Source: Chiloscyllium plagiosum
Taxonomy: Eukaryota
Reading direction: 5' to 3'
Length of the DNA: 44,839 nt
Assembly: GCF_004010195.1 (NCBI RefSeq)
Contig: NC_057752.1
Location: 9,128,503-9,173,341, forward strand
Below the pieces are notes generated by a model that was not told the origin of the DNA, did not search any database, and saw only the letters and a program-made list of their open reading frames with translations. The position numbers were made by a program, and so were the translations under genes. Positions 4,801-31,800 of the stretch are shown piece after piece (position 1 is the stretch's first letter; the number at the start of each line of letters is the position of its first letter).

Positions 4801-7800
4801 ACATTTTGGCTTGGATAGAAGATTGGTGGGCTAACAGGAGGCAGAGAGTAGAATAAATGAGTCTTTTTCAAGGTGGCAAGGTATCACAAGTGATGTACCA
4901 CAGATGTTGGTGCTGGGCATCAACTCTTTACAATTTCATACAATTACAACATTTAGAAGGCATCTGGATGGGTATATGAACAGGAAGGGTTTGGAGGGAT
5001 GTGGGCCTACTGCTGGCAAATGGGACTAGATTAGGTTAGGATATCTGGTCGGCATGGACAAGTTGGACCGAAGGGGTCTGTTTCCGTGCTGTCCATCTCT
5101 ATGACTCTATAAATGATTTGGATGAAGGGATGAAAGCTACAATAACTAAATTTGTTGATGACACAAAGGTAGGTACGAAAGTGAGTGTGAAAAGAACAAA
5201 AAACCTCCAAAGGGATATAGATAAGTGAGTGGGCAAAGATCTGGCAAATGGAGTACATTGTTGGAAAATGTGGAATTGTCTGTTTTTGGCAGAGAGAATA
5301 AAGGAGCATGTTATTGAAATGGTGAGAGGTTGCGGAGCTCTGAGATGCAGAGAGATTTGGGTGTCCTAGTGTATGAGTCACGGAAGGTTAGTCCTTAGGT
5401 ACAGCAAGTAGTCAGAAAAGCTAATAGAATGTTATATTTTATTGTGAGGGAAATTGAATGCAACAAAAGGGAGGTTATGTTTCAGTTATACAGGGCAACG
5501 GTGAGCCTGCGTTTGGAGTACTGTGTACAGTACTGGTCATCATATTTACAAAAGGATGTTAACGCATGGGAGGTAATTCAGAGGAGAGTCAGAGGTGACC
5601 TAATTGAAACATAAAGTATCCTGATGAAACTTGACTGGATGTTTGTGGAGAAGGATGTTTCCTCTTGTGGGAGAATCTAGAAGGGGTCATAGTTTAAAAA
5701 TAGCAGGGGGGTGTGCCCATTTATAAGAGATGAGGAAAACCTTTTCTCTGAGGGTTGTGAGTCTTTGTAATGCCCTGAAAAGGCAGTGGATGCAGAATTG
5801 TTAAATATTTTTAAGGCAGAGCTAGATAGATTCTTGATTACCAAGATGAAAGATTATCAGGGGAATACAGGAATGGAGAGTTGAGGTTAAAATCCGATCA
5901 GCCATGATCTTATTGAATGGCAGAGCAGGACCAAAGAGCCAGGTGGCCTACTCTTGTTCCTTGTTTGTATGTTTATAATTGTGAAATGTCTTCCCCAACC
6001 TCAGGACATCCTAAAACATCTTACAGCTAAAGAAGTACTTTTAAATTGTAGTCACTATTTTCACAAAGCAGGTACAGCAGGCAGTTTACCCAGAAAGCTT
6101 TCATAGACACTAATTAAGTAAATAATCAGAACATCTTTTTTAAAGATCTTGGTTTAAGGGATAAATATTAACCAGAAGTGAAAAGAATTGCAGGTTGTGA
6201 TCCCAAGATAAAGCTGGACAGTATAGCACTTTCATGTAATAAAACAGATTTTGACTTCGTCAGTTATTCAGTATCCCTGATCATGATTTGAAATCATGTG
6301 AGCCAGCCCCTGAGGCTGATGTGTTTGATGGGATAGTGTAGTGTGAGCTTTACTCTGTATCTAATCCCGTGCTGTATCTGTCCTGGGTTTTTACTGGGAT
6401 AATGTCGAGAGAGCTGTAGTCTGTATTAACCCTGTGCTGTATCAGCCTTTGGAGTGTTTGATGAGACAGTGTAGCAGGAGTGTTAGTCTGTATTTAACCT
6501 TGTTATGCCGAACTTGAGAGTGTTCAATTCTGACAATGCTCTCTGCTTAAGATGGAAAGTATTTCACAGATTAGCATTAACTTCTCAATCTTGATGAACA
6601 CAAAACAAATGCACGAGAGTAATCTGTTTCAATAAAATTTACAAGCATGATTTTATGTTAATAATGTATTTTGCAGATCAAACATTAATTGATGAAGAAG
6701 ATATCGAGGAGGATAGAGAGATAGAGAAAACGTCGGCTGAATGGATAGAGGAAGTTAATGTGAAAGTGCAATCGAGCCTGGCTTCTTCCCAAGAGTGTAT
6801 AGAAAATCTCCATAAAATATCAAAAACTCTGTTTAGCCTCCAACATGAACATATAAAGCCAAAGTCAGCAGGTACATTTACAAAAGTATTAGAGTTTGGC
6901 ATATGTCCTAATGTCCAACTTTAAAGGAGACAAAGCTGTTATCTGGGCATGCAGCTTCCTGTGCTGTATGAGCTACTGCTGATGAAGCTTGCTACCACCA
7001 ACCTCTTTTAAGCGTAGGGAGCTACAAGACCTGCTTGGTTCAGTCTGGTCAAGGAAAATCACTTCCTGGTCTAACTAGAAGAGTCTCTTGTAGTTAACGA
7101 GATATAGAGTCATAGAGATTTATGGCACGGAAACAAACCATTCAGTCCAACTCATCCATGCGAACCAGATATACCAACCCAATCTATTCCTACCTGCCAG
7201 CACCCGGCCCACATCCCTCCAAACCCTTCCTATTCATATACCCATCCAGATGCCTTTTAAATGTTCCAATTTTACTAGCCTCCACCACTGCCTGTGGCAG
7301 CTCATTCCATACACGTACCACCCTCTGCGTGAAAACGTTGTCCCTTAGGTCTCTTTTATATCTTTCCCCTCTCACCCTAAACCTATGCCCTCTAGTTCTG
7401 GACTCCCCCACCCCAGGGAAGAAACTTTGTCTATTTATCCTATCCATGCCCCTCATAATTTTATAAACCTCTGTAAGGTCACCCCTCAGCCTCTGATGCT
7501 ATCTTGGGAACTAGTCACTAGTTACATTAATATAAAAATTAGTACCAGGAATTTGAAGAGGAGCAGATATTAGGCCACATTGCTTCAAGATCTTAAACAA
7601 TTCTTCCCACATATCCATATGACAATTATAGCAAGTGGTGCTGATGGCATTCTTCAGTATAAACCCTGTTGAATCCTTTCGGATCCATACCAACATTCCC
7701 CTGCCCCCAAAGCTTTTTTTTCTCTTTTAACGTCACATATTTGTGAATATAATTACATTTACCACAACCCCATTGCCCCAGATTTCTGAGTTTACACATT

Positions 7801-10800: not shown

Positions 10801-13800
10801 TGTACTCTAATTGGTCTATTAGTGCATGAATGGTTCATGGTCAATCTTGGATTTGCTAGGTAAGCTCTGTCCAATTTCTGATTGTATTCTTTAAAAGTAA
10901 CGGCCTTCTTATTGACATCACTTCCGACTGACTCCTCATTCATTCTTTACCATAACAATCATTTCGTAAGAACTGATCTTTCTACAACAGCTTCTCCCTC
11001 TCAGTTTGCCAATTCCATAGATCTTTCCCAAAATAAGATGGCAGCAGTGAACCAATTAATGCATTTGCTTCGAGAATGTAATATCATCTCCTAGTGATTA
11101 ACTATCGTCCCAAATGCATCAAATGATACTCTGAGAATTCTGAGAAATCTATCAATATCCTTTGTCCTCAAGAATCATGCGTGACTTCACAATGACTTTG
11201 AGATCTATAAAACAAAGTTCAAAATAACAAAACAAAATAATACACAGGCCTGTTACATACTGTAAGTTCCCATTTTAAAATACAGTGGTATCTGAATAAA
11301 AGCTGTGTCCACTTCAAAACTATTTTCACATTTGTCAACATAAATTTACATTAGCAATAACAACCGAAATTGCTGAAAAAGCTCAGCAGGTCTGGCAGCA
11401 TCTGTAGTGGGAAATCAGAATTAATGTTTCGGATCTAGTGACCCCTCCTCAGAACTGGACCAGAAACGTTAACTCTAATTTCTCTCCACAGATGCTGGCA
11501 GACTTGCTGAGCTTTTCCAGCAATTTCTGTTTTTGTTTCTGATTTCCAGCATCCACAGTTGTTTTGGTTTTTAAGTTTGCATTAACCTGAGTTGTAAAAA
11601 AGCAACCATAAATGCCCTTACTTTTAACCTGGCCACATAGCTTCTTCACTGCAGAACATGTTTAACAACTAAGTATAGTTTAGGATAATTAAAAAGATAT
11701 AATTTGATTCTTCACTTGCTTGATTAAGTCCTAATAAAAAATAACTCAATCCTACACTCTATCAGCCTAGATTAGGTGCTCAAGTCCTGAATGGAGCTTG
11801 AATCCATGATCATCCAACAGAGGTGAGAGCGCTTTCACTTAGCCAAGCTGGCATTTAGAAAGTTGTGTTGTAAAATGTTAAAAGCAGAATGCATGGAAAA
11901 TTACATTATCCAATTTTGATTGAAAGAAAGAGAAAGACTTATATTAATATAACAATACTTTCAAAATGTTTTGGAACATAACATATAATAGCGTACAGTA
12001 ATTGGGCCTTACATTGTGATTGTTTGCAGGACCTGATGGTAAAGGTACTATTTTAAAATGGTGGAGGGAGAAAAAGATGGATCCCAAAACACTCATGCAT
12101 CTCCTGGATATGCAGCCAATGAGTACAGTGAAAATGGTGGAACCAAACATTGCAAAACAATTGGATGCTGCAGTGGGAGAGATTGATATGATACTAACAG
12201 ACATTGCAAAATCTCCTCCTTGCAAAAAAGCCCAGACAATTGCATTCAGATACATCAGGAAATTTATAGAGAATCTTCACAAAGCATTTCACATTCGGTC
12301 ACAAGAATATTTTGAGGTTGAAAATGAATTGAGAAAGTCAGATTCATTTGGCTCCCAGGGTGCTGAAGATAATCTGGTGAATGAACTAAAACATCTTCGA
12401 GAGCACAGTAGTGCACTTAAAACACGTGCTGAATTAGCAGAACACCATTACAGGGAAGCATGCAGCACCAACTACAATCTGGAAAACACCATTAAACTTT
12501 TGAGGTCCAAAGTTGCACAGCTACAAAACATTAAGAAAACAGACTCTCATGAGCAAACCACTTGTGAAAATTTCTCTGCATCTGATGAAATGCAAATAAA
12601 AACAAAACAGACACCCAAAACAAATAAAAGAACCACGCTTGTGAAAAAGTCAAGGGACAAAATCATTCCCATAGAAAGTCTCAGGGGGAAATATCCCTTC
12701 ACTAAGGAGCACAAAAATATTCTTGTTGATGGGAATGATAGACTTGATGAACAAAGGACAAAATCGAAAACAGGAAAAAATTCATTTGCAGAACCTCAGG
12801 AACAACAAACTATCCTGGAAGTATCCAAGGAAGAAAACATTCCCATAGAAAAACCTGAAGGGAATGATATTCCCACAGAAATGTCCAATGAAAGTACCAT
12901 TCCCACAACTCAGCCCAAACCGGAGAAGGATCTTACTGAAGTCATTCAATGCAAGTTGCATAAATCTGGTGCAGTAAAGAAACAGAAGACATCAGCTCGG
13001 AAAGAAGAAGCTGTGAAGACCAAGGCTAAGCAGATGGCCGTAGACTTGCTGACAGATTTTCAAACTGCTGTTTTGTATTCACTGGATCACGGATTGAGCA
13101 GTGGCAAAGAACTTTCTCCAGGTGACGTCTGTAAAGTCCAAGCTCTCCTCAAGTCTGCTGAATTAAAAAACCTTTACGGAGTGATTGAGAAAGCACTCAA
13201 AGAAATATTTGCCAAGCCAATGCAGAATGCCAAGCAAGAGCATAGTGAACAACCTATTCATTTATTGGTGCCATCAAAGGAAAACCAAGTGGAGAAATTA
13301 AAGGAGAAACAACCGGAATTTACAACTTTAGCTGAACTTCTTGAAGAAATTTTCAGATTCAGTATCATTCAAGAGATTGCACTTGATGAATTAAGTGCCC
13401 AAATTCAATATTTCATTGAAGAGGCTAAAGAGGACAAAAATATGTCCCAGGAAGAAGCCCACTTCTGTGAAAAGACCCTGGAAGCTTTGGACACAATTTT
13501 GACACTTGAGAAAATGTCCTCTCGTGCCGGAATGGACCAGTTAATCAGGATTCGAGAGGCAACCAAGAATTTATACTCTGTCAATAATGTTCTTGGGCTT
13601 AAAGGAAAGGAAATTAAACTACAGGCAGAACATTGTAAGAAGGAAGGAGTTTTTCTGTCTAATATGGCATCAGAGCCTATAGAAAGAACAATACAACCCA
13701 GAGGAAAGGTCTCTGAGGCTGCTGATACCAACAAAATTGTAGATGGATCGTATATTGTAAATGTGACATACCTAAGAACGAATTATAAAACATTGGACCA

Positions 13801-16800
13801 AGCAGTGTATAATGGCATCATTTCCAGACAACTCCATGCCATAGCAACTCATCTTATCCATCAAACGTTAACTACAGTTCAGCTTCGACTGGCTTACTTA
13901 TTCAGAAAGTACATCACTTTCCGTCATATTCAGACACTGAGGTAGATGCATATCTATCATTAAAAGATGTAGTTGATACCAATCTGACCAGACTAATTTA
14001 CTTTTCACTAAGAGTTCTTGTTGGTTAAATGGGCACAAATTTATAATAGACATCAGTACAAATACTGAATGTTTTAAAATCAGTTAGAAGTTTAAAGTTG
14101 TCAATGGGAGTGACTTAATGTGGTACCTCTAAGTCAGAAGGTTGTGATTTTGAGCCCCACTGCAGGATTTGATCATACAAACCAGTCCCAAACTCCAGTG
14201 CAGCATTGAAGGAGTTTTCCCTGTGAGAAGTGCCATCTTTCAAATGACTTCATAAAGTCAAGAATGCTAAAGATTTCATGACGTTCCTTAAAGTAAAGAA
14301 TGGTCTATTCCTGGCCAACATTCCACCCTCAACTAACAACACAAAAAAAAATCATTCACCATGACTTTGTTGCTTGTGGGGTTTTTCTATTTGCTACAGG
14401 TAAAATGGCTGCTGTGTGTAGCCACATCATGGCAATTTCTGAAATCTGTGGTGTACAATTCCTTTGGATGTTTCTGAGACCTGATAGCTGTGTAATTTCT
14501 GTAGTATTGCTGAAAAAACAGATACATTTTGTCAAAGCTTTTCATCTAATGCTTATCAGGACAATTCACACAAAATAGCAAAGTAAGGGGGAAATGACGT
14601 TTATACTGTATGATTCGTTGACAAGTAGATTCTTTTTGGAGGAGGCATTTCCATTGAGACTACCCCAGTTAATGACAACCAACAGTTAACTGCTAAGCTT
14701 TGTTTAAATTTTATGTTCTATACTATCAAATTACTATTTCTTCGAATTAGGAATACTCCAGATAATCTTCCTCAATCAGTCGCCCTCTCCTGAAAAAAGT
14801 GACTTACACTCTGTGTGGCTGCAGCAATCTTCAGACCTTCATCTATTTCTGTTTTTCACAGTGATAGTTCCAATAGAAATGACGGTAGTAAATGGATTAC
14901 CATTGACATTATTTGGAAAATCTAGTCTAGACTGTCAACAGGCTATTTAACTATGAATTACAGCCAAACCAAACCCTGTTCTTACCCAATATCTACAAAT
15001 GATTGGTATCAGGAATAAGGTCCCAGGCTGTTTCTTTCCCCTCTCATAAGTCCCAGGATACTGATCCCAGTTGTGCAGCTCTAATATTGCCCTACCTGAC
15101 ATCATCTCACTGAGCATAGATTAAATATTCAACATGGACTTTACTAGTTTGCATGGCTCAGAACCATATTGTATTTGCCCACTAAACCACTGGAGTACTG
15201 GTAATAGATGTGAGCAATAAGCTTAACTACTGTAGCAAATAAAAAATGTAATGCAAACTCTGGATTAAAATACCTCGCTAGCTTTAGGTAATAGGCTTAT
15301 GGTGTACTTGGTAATTTAGTAATGTTGGTATCTCATGCACCTGTACCATGTTTTGCTGAAAATAAATATAAGCTCACTGAATCTCTTGGTAAGTCCCAGG
15401 CAGGATAGTAAAATAAAAAGTGAAAACAATGCCAAAATTGGCCAGTATTAAAATGTGTATGAAAGAGATGAACCTCCATGGGCTTATTCCTCCACTCTTC
15501 TCATATCCATATGTTCTGTTACAATGTATTGTACAATATTGCATGGCTTAAAACAGGAAGCTCACTTGTTTTATTCCAAATATGTGCAGAGCCAGCTGAT
15601 TTCAGCCAGGATAGGTTCCAGCATGCCATACTGGACCTTGACATCCTGAGGCTAGAGAAGACAAAGGGTTAACAAAAGTTCTTGTCTCCATTGCTGAAAA
15701 ATGCATGAGGTCATGATTGCAGTCAGTTCTGGTGCTCTCCATGGTTGTACTGGAAATACCTGAGACTAAAGCCTGAGATTGGTGTCTTTGGGAGATGAAT
15801 GAAAAGAGAGCCTGGAAAATAATTTTGCAACATATCCCTGTGGATTTCATTGCCTAGTGTATGCCTAGTCTCAGTCATTTTGCCAGGAGGAAGAGCTAAC
15901 TCGATAACTTGCTGTCTTTCAGCCCAATTGTGACACAAGGTGAGGGCTCGGAACAGCCCACAGAGAGTAGCGGCAAAGGAACATCAAAGTGCAGGACCAG
16001 ATTCAGTCATTCACCTTTATGTCTTCCTTTCTCCTTTAAGAAATTATTTGAACAGCAGGATATCTGATGTCAACCGCAAGGATGAAGAAGCTGTTGAGGA
16101 TCTATACAGATTTGCGAATAGACTTGAAGCACGTGTAAAATCCAGTATGCAGCACTGGGATGCAAGACAGCAACTAGTTAATCAGAGTCGCCAAAAGCAC
16201 TTGAATCGAATGACTGACCTGTTCAATCAGGTGTGTTCTGATTTTATTGCGGTCTGTTTTGTCTAATGCTTGAGTTTTGTTTTATGTTTCTGACCCACTA
16301 ATAACCCTTGTTGGTTTTGTGAGGTGAGGGCATGTTATTTGCCCAATCACATCATCCCAAGCTACAAAGCCCCCACTGCTGTCTGGAATCCTCCCAGATT
16401 CAAGCACTTGTGTAAACTGTCAAGGAAGTAAAGAATTCAGGGATGATTTCCTCCCTCGAATATTCCTTTGTGCTTCAATGCAGCAAAAAGGTTGAATTGG
16501 GGAACTCTGCAAGTTCTATTGATTGTATCTAATATTATGATCTAATTGAGTATGAGAACAGGGTCAAAGGGTTGAATGGCTCTTGTTCTTATATGTAGAT
16601 TTTGAGGGAGATCATTTCAGATACAGTTGGGATGAGTTGTTCCCTATCCCTGTCCAGGCCCCAGTTGTTCAGTAAAATGGCTATCAGAGGCTAGATGGAA
16701 ACTGTAGAACATAACCCAACAATAATCACTATCTTGAGGAAAGAAAGTAAAAAATAAAAGTCTATTACCATTATTTATGTTCTTTTTGAAGCTTAAACAC

Positions 16801-19800
16801 CGTACTGGTCTACACTTGTTCAGTCCATTTCTGGCCAAACCACCAAATCCAAGGATTAGGAAGCAGATCGGGTCCCCTCTTCAGCCGACGTTTTTGATAG
16901 CATCCAATAAACCATGTTATCTTCATGGTCAGGGCAACTGTGCATCTTCAGCTTTTCTTAGAATGAGGTATGAGTTTAGTGTTACGGTTCTGAGATTTTC
17001 AACTGAATTATGCAAAATCAGCCTCATCTTTCTTATGGTCGGTTCGGTCACTTGAAGGAAGTTCTCTATTATTGGCTATTCATGATTGTAAGTCAAATTT
17101 TAGATTCTGCTACTCGCGTTTTCAATGAAAATGGGACAAAGACAAAGTGATCTTGGATTGACATTGGTCAACATTTAGTGGACCCATGGTCTGTTCATGG
17201 TGACTCCTCGCAGGCTTGGTCTGGGTGTTTTCAGCTTTCCTCCTTGAATCAGATTCAGCAGACCACCACTTTGCAAAATGCTGCATACTGCCCTTAAACC
17301 AAACTAAGAGAACATTAAATGTACCTAAGATTACAAATGATAGAGAATACGGCGGATGACAGAGAAATATGGCTGAGTGTGTTGGAGAAGCACACTGTAC
17401 CAAAACCTAACTGCAAAGAGTATTCAACAACCGTCCAGTTCCAGCACTGTAAATGGATCCAATCACTGATGAAATATCAAGGAGCAAGGATGAAACAGGT
17501 CGTTAAGCTGGGTATACAGTCAAACAATTCCATAATGGAAATTGAGATTCATTGCTTGAGAGCTGTTACTGGCTTATTCCTGTCCTGCTCGCTTGCTATG
17601 ATGGTGGATCTTTAGAGAAGAAAATTGGGGAGACAAGTATTTTGGGCTAAATTCGGGTGAAATTTGATGTTCAATTGAACATGAGCAGGATTGGAAGTGT
17701 AATTTCCATACGCTTTCTATTCCTCATGTTTGAGGACTTAACAACTTTAAGGTTTGGGGGGGAAAGTGTGTGATAGAGTGAGGGCAGGACTTGAGCTGAA
17801 TCACTAAGTATACTGAATCCTAAAAAGGGGTGAAGAAGACAACGTGTTATTGATTAAAGTACTTTAAGCCCTCATTTTCAATGCTCACTTTGGAATTACA
17901 GGGATCCTCTGATAGAGTTATATTATTCAGGATGTAAGCGCCTGTCTAATGAACAGGAGACCCTCAATTCGAATCTTAGTAATGCCTTGCTCAGTTCTTC
18001 CAAAACGTGGCTTTCGGTTAAAGCTGGAAGGTCTTCCAGTGCAGTGGTAGTGTCCTGATCTGTAAGCTATAATGTCTGGGTTCAAGAGGAGGAATCCTAA
18101 CATGTCCAGTTGATTAAAATAATTATGACATATCCTGGTTTATGCCGACTTCAATAAGAAGACAGTTTTTGTTACACATACAAAGAATAGGAATAAACAG
18201 GTCATTTTCTGAGTGGCAACCAGTGACTAGTGGGGTACTGCAGAGAACAGTGCTTGGACCCCAAATATTCACAAAATATGTTAATGATTTAGGTGCAAGA
18301 ATGAAATATAATATCTTCAAATTTGCAGAGGACATAAAGTTGGGTGAGAGGGTAAACTGTGAGGAGGATGCAGAGATGCTTCACTTTAGACAAGTTGAGT
18401 GAGTGAGAAAACGCTTGATGAAGTATAATGTGGATAAATGTGAGGTTATCCATTTTGGTAGCAAAAACAGGAAAGCAGATTATTAGCTAAACTGCAATAG
18501 ATTGTGAAAGCGGGGTGGGGTGCAATGAGATCTGGGTGTCCTCATACACCACTCACTGAATGTAGCTGCAGCAGGTGTGGAAATGGTATGTTAGCCTTCT
18601 AAGCAAGAGAATTCGAGTACAGGAGCAAGGGTGTCAACAGGAGCAATTGTACAAGGCCTTTGTCAGACCACACCAGGAGTAATTTGGACAGTTTGGTCTC
18701 CTTTTCTAATGAAGGATGTTCTGGCTAAGGAGGGAATCATAACAAAGGCTTACCAAGCAGATTCCTGGGATGGGAGAAAGTAAGGACTGGAGATGCTGGA
18801 CATCAGAGTAAAAAAAATGTGATGCTAGAAAAGCACAGCTGGTCAGGCAGCATCCGAGGAGCAGAAGATTTGATGTTTCGGACATAATCCCTGGGATGGC
18901 AGGACTGATATATGAAGAGAATCAGGATCAGTTAGGACTATATTCTCTGGTGTTCAGTAGAATGAGGTGGGATCTCATTTAAAAAAAACTATAAAATTCT
19001 AACAACTAGACAAGATAAACGCAGGAAGAATGTTCCTGATGACCACCAGGGTCACAGTCTAAGGATAAGGGGTAGGCCATTTAGGATTCAGCTGAGGAGA
19101 TTTTCTTCACTCAGAGAATTGTGAGCCTGTGGAATTGGAGTCATAGAGTCATAGAGATGTACAGCACAGAAACAGACTCTTCGTTCCAACTCATCCATGC
19201 TGACCAGATACCCTAACCTAATCTAGTCCCATTTGCCAGCACTTGGCCCATATTCCACTAAACCCTTCCTAGTCATATATCCACCCAGATGCCTTTTAAA
19301 TGCTGTAATTGTACCAGCCTCCACCACTTCCTCTGGCAGCTCATTCCATACATGCACCACTCTCTGTGTGAAAACATTGTCCCTTAGGTCCTTTTTAAAT
19401 CTTTCCCCTCTCACCCTAAACCTATGCCCTCCAGTTCTGGACTCCCCCACCCCAGGGAAAAGACTTTGTCTATTTATCCTATCCATGCTCCTCTTGATTT
19501 TATAAACCTCTATAAGGTCACCCTTCAGTCGCCGACGCTCCAGGGAAAACATCCCCAGCCTATTCAGCCTCTCCCTATAGCTCAAATCCTCCAACCCTGG
19601 CAACATCCTTGTAAGTCTTTTCTGAACCCTTTCAAGTTTCACAACATCCTTCTGATAGGAAAGAGACCAGAATTGCATGCAATATTCCAAAATTGGCCTA
19701 ACCAATGTCCTGTACAGCTGCAATATGACCTCCCAACTCCTTTACTTAATACTCTGACAAATAAAGGAAAGCATACCACACACCTTCTTCACTGTCCTAT

Positions 19801-22800
19801 CTACCTGTGACTCCACTTTCAAGGAGCTATGAACCTGCACTCCAAGGTCTCTTTGTTCAGCAANNNNNNNNNNNNNNNNNNNNNNNNNNNNNNNNNNNNN
19901 NNNNNNNNNNNNNNNNNNNNNNNNNNNNNNNNNNNNNNNNNNNNNNNNNNNNNNNNNACTGAAGTCCATATAGATCACATCTACTACTCTGCCCTCATCA
20001 ATCCTCTTTGTTACTTCCTGGAAGGTCAACTCTTCTTATCCTCTTATGCTGCTTGACCTGCTGTGCTTTTTCCAGCTTCACTCTTTATCCACTCTGACTC
20101 TCCACCATCTGTAACTCTCACTATCTCCAAGAGTCTGTGGAATTCTCTACCACAGAAAGTGGTTGATGGCAAAACATTAAATATTTTCAAGAGGAAGTTA
20201 GATGCAATTCTTAGGGCTAAAGGAATCAAAGGGTATGGATAAAAATGGAAACAGGGTACTGAGTTGGATTAGATTAGATTAGATTACTTACAGTGTGGAA
20301 ACAGGCCCTTCGGCCCAACAAGTCCACACCGCCCCGCCGAAGCGCAACCCACCCATACCCCTACATTTACCCCTAACACTACGGGCAATTTAGCATGGCC
20401 AATTCACCTGACCTGCACATCTTTTGGATTGTGGGAGGAAACCGGAGCACCCGGAGGAAACCCACGCAGACACGGGGAGAACGTGCAAACTCCACACAGT
20501 CAGTCACCTGAGGCGGGAATTGAACCCGGATCTCTGGCGCTGTGAGGCAGCAGTGCTAACCACTGTGCCACCGTGCCGCCCACGGTGTTCAACCATGATC
20601 ATATTGAATGGCAGAGCAGGCTTGAAGGGCTGAATGGCCTACTCCTATTTCCTCTTTTTCTATACAGGTGTCTTGTGATAGTGATGTGCTAATATGACCT
20701 GCAACATTTATTAACCATATTCCTCAGTACTTGGTGTAGTAATACATTATTTAACATAGTTTGTTGGAAATGCCTGATTTGGTCGTGCAATGATAAAGGC
20801 TGCTACTAACTGGTCTTATTATTTAAGCACCCAAAATCATAAAATATCAGTTATCCGAGATTAACCCCCCCCCCCCCCCACCCACCCACAACAAAAGCAG
20901 TTGCCTTTATTTGGAATGCATAATCATCACTAACAAAGATGTTAGAAAATCAGCCTTTAAATTATAGGAAATTCTAACTTGTTATATTGGGTGTTGTGTC
21001 CGTGGAGCAGAGGAAGCTGAAGAGGAACATGATTGAGATGTATAAAATTATGAGGGCTATAGATAGGGGAGACGGGAAGTAACTTTTCCCAATGGTGGAG
21101 GAATCAATGAGCAGGGAGCATAGATTGAAGCTAATGGTGGGAGGTCCAGAGGGTAGTGGGAATCTGGATTAAAATATTTAAGTGCTTGTTTTTGACTGGC
21201 ACATATCCAGTGGGCCAAAAGACCTTTTTCAGTGCTGTAGATCTCCCTGTATCCACGTGGATAGGCAGGAAAGTGAAGTTGAGGTAGTGGATTAGCATGA
21301 TCTTATTGAAAGGCAGGATAGGTTCAAAGAGCCAACGGGCTTAAACTGACTCCTATTTCTTATATACACACAATGAATAAATATACACAATACTTCGGAC
21401 AGAATGGATTTTCCAAATTCCACATTTTGCCTCCACTGTGCTCAGTTTTGTCACATACCTCTACTTACGCCTATATATCATTAAAAGCTTCAAGTAATTT
21501 TACTGACACACATGGGATATTTTATGTAAATCAGAAATTACTGGGTGTTTAATTTGTCATAAGTGTGGCTTTTTATGTTTAAATAAGAGACAAGTGGTTT
21601 GTTAGTCCATACTGACAATGTCAGTTTTTTAACCATGAAAGTATCCACATAAAGTCTTCTGGCCTGTATGGGGGATGGATGGTACCAATTAATCAAAAAT
21701 GGTGGTTGACAGAGAGTTATGCTTCCTGATGCCATCCAGCATACTTGTAGCATGAACCTTCAAAGAATTAAATATAAAAGAAGATGCAGGCACTCGGGGT
21801 GTAAAGAACAGTATTCTTTTTATTTCTAATCTTCAACAGTATATTAAAGCATAAATTAAAGTGCAAGATAATGAGACATAGGAGCAGAACTAGGCCATTC
21901 AGCCCTTCGAGATCATTCCGCCATTCAATGAGATCACGCCTGATGTGATCATTTTCAACTCCACTTTCCTGCCTTATCCCCATAACAATTAATTCCTTTC
22001 ATGATTTCAAATCTGTCTCACTCAGCCTTGAATATACTTAACGATGCAGCTTCAACAGTCTTTTGCGGCAAAGAATTCCACAGATTCACTACCCTTTGAG
22101 ATAAGAAAATTCCTCCTCATCTCTTCTCCTCCTCCTCTGGACTGCCTCCAATGCTCGTATATCTTTCCTTAGTTAGGGGATCAAAACTGTTCACTGTGAT
22201 ATTCCAGCTGTGATCTGACCAGCCTGATATATTTTTAGCAAGACTTCACAACTTTTTATATTCCAATCCTTTTGAAATAAAGGCCAACATTCCATTTGCC
22301 TTCCCTATTACCCACTGAACTTGGATGCCAGCTTTTTATGATTCATCCACTCAAATCCCTCTGTCCTGCTGAACCCTGCAGTCTTTCCCCATTTAAATAA
22401 TATTGAACTCTATTTTTCCTGCCAAAGTGCATAATCTCAATCTTTCCATATTATATTCCATCTGCTAAGTTTTTATTTAATCACTTAACCTATTATATTC
22501 CTCTGTAGACTCCCTGTGTCATCCTCACTACTTATCTTGCCACCTATTTTTGTGTCAGCTGCAAACTTGATGATAATATGTTCACTTCCACCATCCAAGT
22601 CAAGAATATATACTGTATATATTTCCAGGTATTCAAGAACAACTAGTCCTCAGATTCTCTTTCAACTGTTTCCAAAGATGTAGAAGGCATAGGAGATTAG
22701 TCCTGCATGCTTTATTGAATAAATATCAATTTGCTTTCTGCCTTTTTTGCATGCAAGTAGTGTGCAGAATGTGAAATGGCACAACCTCTTGTGCAGAATC

Positions 22801-25800
22801 AAGTCTGCAAATTTAATCGCAATATGAAAAGCTGAAGTCACATTAACCTGTTTTCTCCTCTTCACTGAAAACTTCTTCTTCTCAGCCTCCTTTGGCTTTT
22901 GAGGACTTACAAAACTCACCATAACTGCTGTATTAGGCGAAAGTGAGGACTGCTGATGCTGGAGATCAGAATCAAGATTAGAATGGTGCTGGAGAAGTAC
23001 AGCAGGTCAGGCAGCATCCGAGGAGCAGGAAAATCAATGTTTCGGGCAGGAGCCCTTCATCAGGATGGGCTATTGTATTGTTAACAGTACATGTCACTTC
23101 AGAGTCCTTGTTAGCTCCTCCATTACTTTAATCTATCTCACTTTTGCGAAGTTTGTCAATTGGATGTGTAGGAAGAGTATCATTTACCATTCCCATATTT
23201 TCCGAAAATGCATTTGTTCTACATCTTAAATCCTTCAAAATCCTCTTCATCTGGAGACCCTTCTGAAAATATAACAGTGTGTAACAATTTTCCTAAGCCT
23301 TACTCAGTGTTGCACATTTCATTCCAAGCACAGGCCACATTTAATTGCTTCAATGCTACATACAGATTTGAAGTTCTATATTGTGCCTACATGATTGATA
23401 AACTTCCTCATGAAATGTCTTATATAATAATATTTCATTTTTTCTGGATGACACCCTGTTAGGTTAAATCAATAGTTAACTTTGGGAGACAGGAAACTGG
23501 TAAAAATGTTGCCTTTCCCAAACTCAGATTCATGAGAATGAGCTCTACAACTGCTTCACTATCTTCAGGCTTGTCAATTTTTAAAAAATACTCTTTCACT
23601 GCAGGTGTAAAAACACGATAAAATCATTCTTGAAAAACATCTTTGTCCATCCATGCATTACCCTGGACATTGTAAATTACAGGTAACTGCAACACCTTTA
23701 AATTACTTCAGACACTGAATTTTCCAACCACCAAAAGTCTTACTTTAAGTGAGCCTGCAGCATTTGCACTCAGCTGTACTGTAAATACCTTTGTCTGTTT
23801 AAAACCAGTAGAACCAGATTCACTTGCACCAGCCAGAGTAGAGTCTGGCAAACATGCCAACATAAACCAGTTTTGTCTGTATTGTAAATTTTATGAAGGG
23901 AAATATTATGTTCTGAAATTAATTTGTTTAAAAAAAATCAAAGTATTTCTCTGCAGCATTTAATTGGCCAATTTTATTCACCAGATAGAGCTAACCTTCT
24001 AATTCTGTAACAAAGTTTAAAACATGAAAGCAGTAATTAGAAAATACATATGGTTTAGTCAATTTAATATTCTCATTAATTTTTTTTTGCCCTTTCAATG
24101 AGTATTGTGTAAGAGAAAAAAATGGGGTGTGGGGACTCTGAATATTTCAATAAAACTATGAAATACTGTCTGGGCTCATGAAGTTAGAGAGCATCTTTTA
24201 TTTGATTCAGAACTGTCAAAACACTTCAGCAATTATTCTCCTTGGCCCTAATATCATATATCATGGCTGAGCCAACAGTATATTTAAAGGAGTTGGTTAG
24301 CTCATGTGGTTGGAGGGTCAGGGGTTTGCAATGCAGAGTGACGCCAACAGAGGGATTTAATTCCCGTACTGGCTGAGGTCATTATGAAGAGTCCACCTTC
24401 TTGACTTTACTGAGATGTAGTGGCCCTCAACTTAAACTCGCCACCAGTCGTCCCTCTTTGAGAGAGCTCAACTATGGTGACTTTACCTTGAAATTCTTTA
24501 ATCAAAGCTTTCTGATTCTTGCCCTTTTCACCACATCCACAGATGTCAATTTTCTACTTAGTGTCAACGCTTTTGCACTTCTCACTCTGGCTTTTCTCTG
24601 GTTAATGGATTTATAATAGCAAGATTGGGTTTATAACTCATGTATTGGAAACATAAAGAATGTCAATGGTGGCTATGAATATGGACTGCCAGCACCTCTC
24701 ACAGAAGCTTGTCCAGCCATATCAAGGAGACTTAGGAGGTCAGCTTGATCAAATGGATCAATCACCTGAAAAATGGCAGATGAAGTTCAATCAGGATAAC
24801 TGCGAGATGTTGCATTTTGGTACAATAAGCAGAGGTAAGGCTTCTACAATTAATGGTAAGGCCTTGGATAGTGTTGTATAACAGAGAGACCTAAGGGTGC
24901 AGGTACATAATTCTTTGAAGGTTGCGTCACATAGAGGCAGGGTGGTTAAAAAGACATTTGGCACACTTGCCTTCATTGCTTAGTCTTTTAAGTGTAGGAG
25001 TTGGGATGTCATGTTGAGGTTGTACAGGACATTAGTGAGGCCTCTTCTGGAGTACGTGTCCAGTTCAGGTCACCCAGTTACAGGAAGGATATTATCAAGC
25101 TGGAGGGGATTCAGAAGAGATTTACCAGGATGTTGCCGGGTATGGAAGATTTGAGTCATATGGAAAGGTTGGATAGGCTGAGATTTTTTTCACTGTAGTG
25201 TAGGAGGTTGAGAGACGATCTGATAGAAGTTTATAAAATAATTAGAGGTATAGGTAGAATTAATGGTGCTTGTCTTTTCCCTGGAATGGGGGAATTTAAA
25301 GCCAATTGGCACATTTTTAAAGTGAGAGGAGAGAGATTTAAAAAAGACATGAGGGGCAAATGTTTTACACAGAGGGTTGTTCATGTGTGGGATGACCTTC
25401 CTGAGGAAGTGGTGAATGTGGGTACAATTACAATGTTTAAGAGACATTTGGATAGATACATGAATAGGAAAAGTTTGGAGGGATAGGGGCCAGGGGCAGG
25501 TGGGTGGGACTAGATTAGTTTGGGATTGTAATCTTCATGGACTGGTTGGATTGAAGGGTCTGTTTCCATGCTGTATGACTATGACTCTGGTCCTGGATAA
25601 CCTGAATGGCTTCCAATTGCTAAAATGAAATAGGGAAATACAGAAATTCTGGTTAGTAGAGAATTGTGGTTGGTGTAGTGCCAGACAACAAGAAGTTTAC
25701 ACTATGCAGCTGCATGTATCAGCAATGCTGTACCCAGGTTCCAGTTATTCGAGAGGACTGCTGTTGTGTGCAGCAGGTACAAGCTGAGATTCTAACAATC

Positions 25801-28800
25801 ATTCTACAATAAAGCTGATTTTCAAAAGGCACTGGGAAATCTTGAGAAGAAGCTGCCTTGAAGTCAGTTAACAGTGACAATGGGCTAGTGAAAACATCTG
25901 AAGCAATTTGCCTCATACGTACACACATAATTTATTTACAGAATATTACAAAAATAGATTCTGGACCGTTTTTATACGAAATTTACAACTCATACTCTTA
26001 AACACAATGAAACTAAAATGCATCAATGCTGAGGAGAGGCCGAGGCATCAAAAACAATAGCCTTATTAGTTCTACTTAAGTGTCTGGTTCCAAAAGGAGA
26101 AAGTCATCCTTGTCTCACAGCACAATGGTTACTTTGCATAGGTCAGAATACAGGACACAGTTTCAGGAAAGATAAAACAACAAAAAAAATCACATCAGGG
26201 CCGCTGGATTCAGTATTATTCTGAACTACTCTAAAAGGTAAAGTTGCCACAGTCCTGCTCTCTTATTAGAGAAAGACAACTGGAGATGGTTTAACCTAAG
26301 GGTCTCTTGTGCCTCAGGCAAGGGAGATGGATGAGAAGTAGAGTCCTTCATGGTAACCTCAGCCACTGTGGAAATTGAACCCATACTGTTGGCATCACTC
26401 TGTATCACAAACCAGCTGTCCAGTTAACTAAGCTAACCAACGCCTTCTCCATTATTATTCAGCACTAAAAACATAGAAAGCCCATTACTTCTCTCTGTGT
26501 GCAATTTTGGGATGCACATAGGCAGCTTTGTTGGAGGACAGAGAATTCAGTGGGTTGTAGGGAAGAGGTTATAGAGCTCAGGAGGGATGAGGCCCTGCGA
26601 GGAGTTGAACATATGGATTTGAGGTGTTCCTGGACTGGAATCCAATAATTTGGCAAGGACAGGGATGCTGGTGTAGAGGGTGGAGCAAATTAGAATATGG
26701 GGAGCAGAGCTTTGGATGAGCTCAAGTTTCAGGAGGCAATCAGGAGAACATTGGAACAGTTGATTCTGAAAGTAGCAATGATATGGATGAGGGTTTCAGC
26801 AGCAGATGTGCTAAGGCAAGGGTAGAGATGGGCAATGTGACAGGAGGTGGAAGTAGGTGGTCAGAGAGGATAAAGGGGTGAAAGCTCAGCTCCAGGTTAA
26901 ATTCAGCAGCTAGAGTGTGAACAATCAGATTCAGCCTCAGACTGTGGGCTACAGAATCACGAAATATCTGTCAATTCCCGGAATCCAACTATACAGCTAA
27001 GGACAGTGGCTCTCCACAGTTACAAAATCTGACTTGTTCACTCCAAATCTGGATCACTGGCCACACAGATTGATTATCAACCAGTAAATCCTCTATTATA
27101 CCGATGGCAGCAGTAAGTAAATGTGGGAGAGTCCCCTGACCAGCTGTGCCTGTTGTGAAATGGGGTACCTCACGCTATAACCTCCTGTGACAGGCTAGTG
27201 AGCTGTTCCAGGAAGAACCAACAGATGTTTTGCCTGTCTCTAGCCTCTCTGGGTATAGAAGGGGTAAAAAAGGATTAAAAAAAGTTGTGTGAAACAGCTC
27301 ACATTATGCTTTCCCATCATAATACAACATCAAATTTGGTTGCCACCTCAATGTTTTAACAGACAAGTGAAACATTGGGAAAAATTCCAGGGTCCAGGCT
27401 TCAGCCGACTCTTGCTGCTACTTTTTAAGTTCTTACAATTGCTGTTTGGTTAAATATTAAATGTTGCACTCCATTAGGAACTCCCAAATGTTTTCCACAA
27501 ATATTGTTGATGGGAGTTTTCCAATTGCCAAGAAGAACTCTGCTATCCCAGCTTCATTTCCAGAGACTCCGAAATTAATGACAGTGGACAGGTAAGACGT
27601 CCATTTTGTTGCTTGTTTTCTTGTTCAGTCTTTCTTGGATCCATTTCTTCATCTCATGGTCTAAAGGAACTAAGAGTGTTAATGAACTCCTAGGCTTATC
27701 CAGACAGCAGCTTGCAGTGCTAGAGTTCTGATATTCCAGAGTTTTACTTTCCCTTTATCCTGCTTCAACCAGCCACATCAAGTTTTGAGCATGGCAGTAG
27801 TCTGAAGGAATATAGATTAGGTAGCCCAGGGCAATGTGTATGGCAATGGTCTGAAGGATGTACATGGCACTAAGTGTCTTTTGCTTAGGTTAGCACATAC
27901 AAAACTATGAGCAGAATTTTAACTGGCCACAGGAGATAAGAAAAGAGGTGTGAGGGATTGAAAATGAGGTGGCTTGGCATTGGGAAAATTACCTGATTTT
28001 TCTTTTTGTGTCCTTATCAATTTCCTTTGTTTTGTATCAATTTTCTCTCTTCCTCTACAACAATCAGTGATGCCAGCAGAATTAGTTATATCAATTGAGA
28101 TTAAGTATTTGCAAGTGAAGGGCATTTATTGGATGGTTATTTGAGCACACTAGGAGGGTTTGTAGGAGGCCACCTGGTTAAGGCGATGGATTAGAAATCT
28201 GTCGGGGTTTCTCCACAAACATTTGAGTTCTACTGATTACAGTTCGATGCGTTGCTGTTTTACCCTCTTGTGGTGCATTGGTAATGTCCCTACCTCTGAA
28301 CCAGGTAGCTAGGTTCAAGTCCTACCTGCTGCAGAGGTGTGAAAGAACATCTCTGAAAAGGTTGATTAGAAAAATAGTTTTTTTGAATACATTTAAGCCC
28401 TTAATGGGCTTTTCATGTAAATTAATCAATTGGAGAACACGGATGATTTGCTGGTGGTGGTTAATAGGTGAAAAAAATACTGTGAGTGATTTGGTGATAG
28501 GGAAAAAAAAATGTTTGAGCACATATGGCTTATTGGATGTGTCTGCATTTGGCATGGTTTATTAGGGGCTCTTGTGTTTGTTATGGACCAGACCAAACCC
28601 CCTCAAAATATGTTAAGAATATAGTCTAGATGCTAACCTTTTCTTATTTTAAAGGTAAGTGTAAGGCGTTGTGTTCCAGATGCAATCCAATTGGTCAAAC
28701 CACTCGACTTTAAGCAAATGCACTTCTTTTTATACGACTGTTAAAATACAGACAAAATAAAAATAAAAGAATTGGCATAACTGTAACTCCATCGAAATGC

Positions 28801-31800
28801 TTAATCAAATAATATGTGTATTAACTATTACTAATTAAATGTTCCAGTATAGTAACATCCCATAAACACACCCTTGGCAAAGGCAAATTCAGTAAAACAG
28901 ATTCTCTCACATGCAATTCCAGCAACAGGAAGAGAACCCCAGCTTATTGCTGTAACAGAGACACCAGCAACTGCAGAAAGCTAAAAACTAAAACTCCTGG
29001 CTCTGTGGGAGCTTGACCTCACACATTAAGGCAGTTTCTATTGTTCCAACTTTAAAACAAAAACCAAGGCCTCACAAATTGTTTATTGACTTTGAGCAGA
29101 CTACTTGGTATCTCTGTCTCAACCTTTTGTTATATAAAAAAAATTAGGACAAAATACTCCTTTTAAAGCCATAGTGTTGTCACATGCTGCAGTGGTAATA
29201 TCTCTACCCCTAAACCAGAAGGTGTGGGTTAAAGTCCCACTTGCTCCAGGGAATGTGTAATTACATCTCTGAACAGGCTGATTAGAGAATATCTTGAGTG
29301 AATATCAAGAGACACTTGCTGACACAGGAATAGAGTGGAGTCAGGAGATAGTAAGGACTGCAGATGCTGGAGATCTGAGTCGAGAGTGAGGTGCTGAAAA
29401 AGCCCAGCAAGTCAGGCAGCATCCGAGGAGCAGGAGGATCAACGTTTCGGGCAAGAGCCATTCATCAGGAATGAGCATTTCTCATCTTGATGAAGGCCCC
29501 TTGCCCAAAACGTCAATTCTCCTGCTCCTCAGATGCTGCCTGACCTGCTGTGTTTCCAGCAACACGCTCTCGATTGGAGTCAGGAGATATATACCAGCAA
29601 TGTTTTACTCTGAGTACATCTTTCCAGAAGGCTGGCTCTTGGTTCTTTCTTCACCAGCTGGCTATGAGCAGTATAGCTCCCACAGCAATCTTCTAATGCC
29701 TCACACAAGTAGCTTGGTGAATGAAGCCAAGATATTGGGAAAGGTATATTTGTAAAACACTTGAGGAAAGCCTGCACTTGAGCTTTACACCTCATTTACA
29801 AGTATTTGGACAAGTAGGTGGTGTCTGCCATGATTTCACAGATAGTGGTCCTGTGGTAAGACCCAGGAATTGGCAAGCTGGAGTAGCACTGGATGATTGG
29901 AGGGAGGCAAATGTTGCTTCTCTGTTCAAGAAAGGGAATAGGGAAATCCCTGGGAATTACAGATCAGTCAGTCTTACGTCTGTGGTAAGCTAAGTACCGG
30001 AAAGGATTCTGAGAGATAGGATTTATGACTATTTAGAAAAACATAGTTTGATTAAAGATAGCTCTGTGGGGGGCAGGTCATGCCTCACAGGCCTTATTGA
30101 GTTCTTTGAGGATCTGACGAGACAAATTGACGATGTGGATGTGATGTATATGGATTCCAGTAAGGCATTTGATAAAGTTCCCCACAGTAGGCTCATTCAG
30201 AAGTTTAGGTGGTATGGGATTCAGGGAAATTTGGCTGTCTGGATACAGAATTGGCTGTCCGAAAGAAGACAGCGAGTGATAGTCAATGGAAAGTATTCTG
30301 CCTGGAGGTTGTTGACCAGTGGTGTCCCTCAGGGATCTGTTCTTGGGCCTCTGCTCTTTGTAGTTTTTATAACTGACTTGGATGAAGAAGTAGAAGGGTG
30401 GGTTAGTAAGTGTGTCGATGACACAAAGGTTGTTGGTGTCGTAGATAGTGTCAAGGGCTGTTGCAGGTGACAACAAGACATTGACAGGTTGCAGAGGTGA
30501 TATGAGAAGTGGCAGATGGGGTTCAACATGGAAAACTGCAAATTGATATATTTTGGAAGATTGAATTTGATTGCTGAATACTGTACAGGGTTAAAGGCAG
30601 GATTGTTGGCAGTGTGGAGTAACAGCAGGATCTTGGGGTCCACGTACATAGATCCCTCAAAGTTGCCACCCAGGTCGATAGGGATGTTAAGAAGGCATGT
30701 GGTGTTTTGGCCTTCATTAACAGGGGGATTCAGTTTAAGAGCTGTGAGGTTTTGCTGCAGTTCTATAAAACCCTGGTTAGACCACACTTGGAATATTGTG
30801 TCCAGTTTGCCTCATTGTAGGAAGGATGTAGATGATTTAGAGAGGGTGCAGAGGAGATTTACCAGGATGCTGCCTGGATTGGAGGGCATGTCTTATGAAG
30901 AGAGGTTGAGTGAGCTAGGGCTTTTTATACTAGAGAGAAGAAGGAAGAGAGGTGATTTGATCGCGGTGTACAAGGTAATGGGAGGCATAGATAGAGTAGA
31001 TAGCAGAGACTTTTCCCCAGGGCAGAAATGGCTGTCACAAGGGGTCATAATTTTAAGGTGATTGGAGGAAGGTTTCAGGGAGATGCCAGAAGTAGGTTCT
31101 TTATGCAGAGAGTGGTGGGTGTGTGGAATGCACTGCCAGCAGTGGTGGTAGTCAAGTCAGAGACATTAGAGACATTTAAGCGACTGCTGGATAAGCACAT
31201 GGACGGCAGTAAATTGAGGGGTGTGTAGGTTAAGTTGATCTCTATCAAGATAAATGCTCGGCACAATATCGTGGGCCAAAGGCCCTGTACTGTGCTATAC
31301 TGTTCTATGCTCTATGGAGTAGTGGTATGGGGACAGGGGTGACTGCAACAACCATAGAGCATGGGGGTCATTTTGGCATCTTGTGGTTCCACAGAAATGT
31401 TGAATCAAATAGTTTTTTGGCAATCATTTTTAGACTGCAGCAACTGTTTAAGAATTCTGAGTGAACTTCAAAATGGCAAGGTACACCTAAATGTGTATGT
31501 CTCCCCTACCTGCTCCCCATTTCTGACAGATATTTATATGCCTTAACCGTCAGTGTCGCAGCCATATATTTATGGAGGAGATGAAAATGCTCTTGAAAGG
31601 AAGGTAACTGTCTTGATCTGAAAGTATTTCAATCATTAGCCCTTTAAAATTGAAAAGGGGGTGTAGCTGTCAATGAAAATGGAAAAAGAAATCTGTATCG
31701 CTTTGATTTACAGGCCAAGAGGTGTAGAAGCTATACTAATAGTTTCAATGGTTGTTTGTTAACATTTCCTAAGGATCCTTTATGAATGCTTAGCTGATTT

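Follow-up and report, generated by a model that had tools for sequence, protein, structure and literature searches.

In a 44,839-nt stretch of the Chiloscyllium plagiosum genome (hereafter the window; NC_057752.1, positions 9,128,503 to 9,173,341), we find the remains of a transposon on the minus strand, running from about position 25702 to about 21648. We are confident that this element is a dead Tigger (pogo superfamily) DNA transposon and that its family, represented by at least 16 broken copies scattered over the genome, falls in a clade with the "jerky homolog" transposases of turtles, alligator and coelacanth and with mammalian JRK. Transposons of the pogo/Tigger type are marked by a DD29-36D catalytic triad, by terminal inverted repeats (TIRs) of at most 40 nt that start with CAGT, and by duplication of a TA target site. 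The ends of the element, its copies, its decay, its nested insertions and its position in the tree are all direct observations. A sequence-only reading of the window had described either a relic of the mobile lineage that gave rise to JRK or a dead JRK-like gene. The mobile Tigger lineage in JRK's clade stands; the dead gene does not, given the TIRs, the dispersed copies and an even pattern of decay.

The transposase remnant was aligned to seven reference proteins using a purpose-written frameshift-aware aligner that permits long insertions. Residues 6-541 of the turtle protein P0005 (591 aa) align to window positions 24601-22729 with 253 of 494 residues identical (51%) and a score of 777, compared to a mean of 37 and a maximum of 43 for 30 shuffles, 40 for the reversed sequence, and 38 for the plus strand. 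P0005 contains the Pfam domains CENP-B_N, HTH_Tnp_Tc5 and DDE_1, and the remnant is collinear with it across all of these residues. Scores for the other references are 718 and 674 (coelacanth), 701 (alligator), 550 (marsupial JRK), 455 (bamboo-shark gene) and 398 (mouse JRK). The likeness to JRK is real, but judged by these alignments the reptile and coelacanth proteins are nearer. All 13 of the ordered JRK-like peptides previously read on the minus strand were located, each once and collinear from 24553 to 22783, and the similarity to JRK does reach into the C-terminal tail in the protein alignment, as had been claimed. The alignment to P0005 passes through 15 frameshifts and 6 stops, and only the first Asp of the catalytic triad is kept, the second and third being lost. 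The window copy is unable to encode a transposase.

The element is one of many. When its core was searched at the DNA level, 17 matches were returned, with 65-72% identity in the longer ones; they fall at 13 places, and all but one of these (12) are outside the window element. Searches with both element ends added three places, so that the count of genomic copies called for in the sequence-only reading comes to 15 other dispersed loci bearing a broken transposase. None of these 15 copies, retrieved together with their flanks and aligned, holds a whole reading frame. Their Kimura two-parameter distances to a leave-one-out consensus range from 0.25 to 0.39, and their mismatches are even across codon positions 1, 2 and 3 (0.265, 0.233 and 0.262, respectively). 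For the intact JRK-like gene L018, a relative elsewhere in the genome, the corresponding values against the consensus are 0.354, 0.229 and 0.648, and the differences thus fall mostly at the third position. The window copy lies about 0.25 from its consensus; it has decayed neutrally, and function is likely now absent.

The ends of the family are also recognizable. Of the 32 family ends, a large part of them truncated, 8 reach a TIR score of at least 17 of 24; none of 34 wrong-orientation controls does so, their maximum being 16. The 5' TIR of the window copy scores 17 of 24 against the TIR motif. Allowing one mismatch to the TIR pattern, we found seven further sites, with none for the reversed pattern. 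A clear transposase remnant within 1.5 kb on each side was found at none of the seven. Four of them have a putative inverted partner at a distance of 327-1217 nt (scores of 19, 18, 18 and 16 of 24, the last no better than the controls). The terminal DNA of the element is shared by three of these four. The short paired-TIR elements that carry the family's ends (L144, L146, L147 and L150, of 636, 675, 327 and about 1217 nt, respectively) look like non-autonomous derivatives, judging from sequence; L144 contains a nested copy of another repeat. The dinucleotide TA is found at both ends of L146, at one end of the copy L111 and of L144, and at the 5' end only of the window copy.

To set the limits of the window element we compared its flanks with other copies, which places its start at about 25702, following a TA, and its end at about 21648. 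The sequence-only reading had given a span of 22720..24610; the transposase is indeed there, and the whole element is larger. Similarly, the two nested insertions it named were both found independently by the aligner (211 nt at 24493-24283 and 145 nt at 23082-22938), and their true number is four, the further two being 3' ends of long interspersed nuclear elements (LINEs). Without the insertions, the pieces of the element total about 2116 nt. Its 3' TIR, at about 21665-21648, is damaged, with about 6 nt gone and without an intact TA. In the order of the element, the parts are as follows.

25679..25704, minus strand: decayed 24-nt 5' TIR (25702-25679) with the TA dinucleotide at 25704-25703; other copies align to it at their 5' ends
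25589..25678, minus strand: 5' subterminal sequence, common to copies L110 and L117
24744..25588, plus strand: nested insertion 1, a LINE 3' end that matches at least 32 loci at about 70-74%
24602..24743, minus strand: remaining 5' untranslated sequence, then the reading frame's start in decayed form, from alignment with other copies
22729..24601, minus strand: broken gene for the transposase, corresponding to residues 6-541 of turtle P0005, with 15 frameshifts and 6 stops
24283..24493, plus strand: nested insertion 2, a dispersed short repeat, SINE-like (short interspersed nuclear element), from the aligner gap and repeat matches
22936..23069, no strand assigned: nested insertion 3, an abundant 134-nt module, from the aligner gap, repeat matches and very high read depth
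22626..22728, minus strand: last stretch of coding sequence, together with the 3' untranslated part, from comparison with other copies
about 21871..22625, minus strand: nested insertion 4, an older LINE 3' end with approximate limits, from comparison with copies and repeat matches
21648..21870, minus strand: 3' terminal sequence of the element, to which L110, L111, L115, L116 and L123 align at their 3' ends

The family consensus has a DD32D triad. Its identity is highest with coelacanth P0146 (76%), followed by turtle P0005 (75%), alligator P0004 (73%), marsupial JRK (63%), L018 (55%), and mouse JRK (54%). Because this first consensus was guided by reptile and coelacanth proteins, we rebuilt it with mammalian JRK, the shark gene, and outer relatives as guides. 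The rebuilt consensuses are 2-4 points lower and keep the same order (coelacanth 73-74%, turtle 72%, alligator 70%, marsupial JRK 60-62%, mouse JRK 51-52%). We then placed the family in a quick 74-row tree and in careful trees of 30 and 23 rows, the subsets being hand-picked. A clade of coelacanth B, the shark family, turtles, and JRK is present in all trees, with support of 98/91 and 97/98 in the careful trees, and the turtle elements are sister to JRK (99/98 and 98/98). The consensus therefore groups with JRK and not with another TIGD/Tigger clade, in trees whose rows include no named JRKL, TIGD2/5/7 or CENPB proteins. The species tree is not followed, in that an alligator element lies outside the group of coelacanth B, shark, turtles, and JRK in one of the careful trees; this mismatch fits several invasions and is no proof of transfer. 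The shark family is a collateral relative of JRK's ancestor and not the ancestor itself.

Direct ancestry of JRK, which the sequence-only reading had implied, is thus weakened by the position of the turtle elements. A shark family that was the immediate source of JRK, closer to it than any described transposon, would still have to lie in the supported clade, as it does, with its order relative to coelacanth B open. However, the turtles-plus-JRK clade is strongly supported, turtle P0005 is 71.5% identical to marsupial JRK versus 60-63% for the shark consensus, and forcing shark and JRK alone together costs 23 log units and is rejected by the approximately unbiased (AU) test (p = 0.021; one model, with the test following a first tree). 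A sister position to mammalian JRK is not supported, on these same grounds, and we regard the direct-source explanation as very unlikely.

It is even harder to credit that the window copy is a pseudogene, whether its source were a shark orthologue of JRK that had been domesticated or the intact gene L018. The 15 other broken copies, the lack of codon-position bias in the decay, and the short TIR-bounded elements with the same ends argue that it is not a JRK pseudogene, although the JRK similarity extends to the C-terminal tail, an intact JRK-like gene does exist in the genome, and shark JRK-like sequences are termed pseudogenes in the text accompanying the JRK table of Gao et al. 2020 (PMC7386202). 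A pseudogene of L018 in particular is at odds with a consensus just 55% identical to that gene, and the AU test rejects trees in which the shark family is joined to L018 and the whale-shark gene (p = 0.002). A single-copy JRK orthologue without TIRs is ruled out by the TIRs and the other copies. The gene nearest to the element in the window is FAM186A/B-like, and such a gene is not known to lie beside human JRK.

Several points weigh against reading the element as a dead Tigger of JRK's clade, or limit how finely it can be placed. The copy counts come from limited searches of the 3.56-Gb genome and are lower bounds. The target duplication of the window copy is visible on one side only, its 3' TIR lacking TA. 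The consensus has a median depth of 10 and its four versions agree at only 90-94%. Finally, the trees are without named JRKL, TIGD2, TIGD5, TIGD7 and CENPB proteins, and they do not settle the order among shark, coelacanth B and turtle-plus-JRK.

The dead Tigger is an old one. Contigs under three other organism labels have the same insertion, with both ends and the nested pieces included, and are about 96-98% identical to it (4 of the 24 listed runs were compared). Because this identity is set against a distance of about 0.25 from the consensus, the insertion would predate the divergence of those organisms many times over. Both pogo and Tc1/mariner transposons move by cut-and-paste transposition, and we infer the former activity of the shark element from them. 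Under this model, an active transposase would have bound the 24-nt TIRs by two helix-turn-helix domains, excised the element with its DD32D centre, and allowed its insertion at TA sites. The same transposase would also have mobilised the short non-autonomous elements that carry these ends. Later the family went extinct in this shark lineage, and the window copy decayed neutrally and received its four retroelement pieces. A more doubtful possibility is that the JRK-source lineage entered sharks very long ago and was passed horizontally among cartilaginous fishes, coelacanths, reptiles, and early mammals, its ends remaining nearly unchanged. If so, sharks would hold a parallel of the JRK/Tigger15a pair of mammals, that is, scattered short TIR elements together with a retained L018 that may still bind them.

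The nested insertions belong to dispersed repeats. The repeat of insertion 2 has at least 40 matches including itself (40 of 685 candidates were scored), the module of insertion 3 matches at least 37 genome loci, and a relative of insertion 1 elsewhere in the window adjoins an RVT_1 stretch. From their motifs, we take insertion 1 to be a CR1-type LINE and insertion 2 to be a SINE, its tRNA-like head being seen by eye only; insertion 3 is presumably a Penelope-type terminal module. For the labels "SINE" and "PLE (Penelope-like element) module" in the sequence-only reading, an Rfam scan of 21000-26500 gave no tRNA or hammerhead, its sole match being a chance mir-194 (E = 0.54). Likewise, a Pfam search of eight repeat-derived frames returned two RVT_1 matches and no GIY-YIG that would back the Penelope label. 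Copies of the 134-nt module are also found at window positions 18802, 29371, 39043 and 44228, with a hammerhead-like core by eye, and in some cases two copies face each other as an inverted pair with 14 nt between them (11350-11543 and 29400-29555). In one single-cell run, of which about 2% was read, reads fall on the nested high-copy repeats only and are uninformative on expression of the element.

A FAM186A/B-like gene on the plus strand has exons at 6598-6924, 12020-13945 (a 641-codon open frame) and 15934-16266, and is the sole neighbour identified in a check for synteny with JRK loci. The last of these exons has an apparent splice donor at its end; further splice-site candidates are uninformative. 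PF20865 matches two of the known exons only, and 69 short frames gave no FAM186 match. The earlier placement of the element in an intron is thus not confirmed and, because no later FAM186-like exon was found, the element may be intronic or downstream of this gene.

Elsewhere in the genome we find two intact JRK-like reading frames. L018 (862-2523; G000:C8:107363962) encodes 553 aa. It has a counterpart in C. punctatum at 96% identity and, over 73% of its length, one in the whale shark at 85%. Within 2.5 kb of it, no TIR scores higher than the controls. L018 is a branch apart from the window family and probably a host gene retained from a related Tigger. The second, L026 (871-2661; G000:C4:39073444), is a jerky-like frame of 597 aa. 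Chiloscyllium, Stegostoma, Carcharodon, and Scyliorhinus have counterparts with 72-96% identity to it, and the name MTERF3 is given in a single NCBI record. L026 resembles a whale-shark sequence in the JRK table of Gao et al. 2020 (PMC7386202), where the accompanying text calls shark JRK sequences pseudogenes; L026 looks conserved across sharks. In addition, two JRK-like proteins on different branches, P0010 from a turtle and P0042 from a caecilian, contain an extra PF01352 (KRAB) domain.

The derivation of JRK from a Tigger transposon was described by Gao et al. 2020 (PMC7386202), who, in the portion of the paper on JRK, list JRK "pseudogenes" in cartilaginous fish, coelacanth, and frogs. Our findings suggest that the JRK-like sequences of non-mammals are instead a mixture of transposon copies and separate host genes. 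The coelacanth "jerky protein homologs" (the P0006/P0146 and P0003 clusters) have the highest identity to the shark consensus (P0146, 73-76%) but, unlike the shark family, whole or nearly whole frames survive. At 90% identity they form clusters of 15 (P0003, P0121-P0134) and 5 (P0006, P0145-P0148) spread over several contigs, and are likely a young multi-copy transposon annotated as genes. Among the coelacanth rows examined in the tables of Gao et al. 2020 and Diaby et al. 2022 (PMC9219625), none has the shark-family TIR. Mammalian JRK shares the domain order and clade of the shark family, but it is a conserved host gene and the shark element is dead and multi-copy. In the sections of the Codebook reports that deal with JRK, JRK binds the terminal repeats of Tigger15a (PMC13538051; PMC11601254; bioRxiv 2024.11.11.622097), and, of the Dfam families, Tigger15a matches JRK best in TBLASTN and is named as the one that JRK arose from or is near (PMC13538051; PMC11601254). 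Tigger15a is also listed by Kojima 2018 (PMC5753468), whose listing makes no link to JRK.

The closest published counterparts are the Tig1-like elements of turtles and crocodilians in Table S1 of Gao et al. 2020 (Chpi-, Chmy-, Mate- and Pesi-Tig1-like1; Apsp-, Tetr-, Almi- and Alsi-Tig1-like), which also appear as Tig1-like(1) in Table S1 of Diaby et al. 2022. As tabulated there, they share with the shark family a 24-nt TIR beginning CAGTAAAAG(C) and, as far as the shark ends show it, a TA site; most turtle rows give DD32D, as in the shark consensus, and element lengths are about 2.3-2.7 kb. The tabulated transposases of 591, 597 and 586 aa are equal in length to P0005, P0004 and P0007 from the same species. 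Because such same-TIR transposons with whole frames are already in print, and Tigger15a is already named in Codebook, the novelty implied by the sequence-only reading is weakened. The hope that the ancestral transposase could be reconstructed from the shark copies fares little better; a consensus is computable but is a poor route, since closer frames survive whole in turtles, alligators, and the coelacanth. No cartilaginous-fish row has the shark-family TIR in Table S1 of Gao et al. 2020 (0 of 1, that single transposon bearing a different TIR) or of Diaby et al. 2022 (0 of 5), and our literature searches, which did not cover Dfam or Repbase, found no published description of the family. The family extends the JRK-source Tigger clade to cartilaginous fishes, for which these two surveys, both requiring whole elements, list none with this TIR, and adds an old branch for dating the JRK-source lineage and for asking if JRK's DNA-binding preference predates mammals. 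Compared to Tig1-like elements, the shark family is much more decayed, with no whole frame found and a consensus protein that is 25-30% different, yet the subterminal DNA is alike at both ends by eye. With the same TIR and a transposase in the same clade, the shark family would, on sequence grounds, belong with the Tig1-like1 elements. We view it as a side branch, apparently undescribed in sharks in the tables of both surveys, of a lineage that reptile copies in better condition had already made known.

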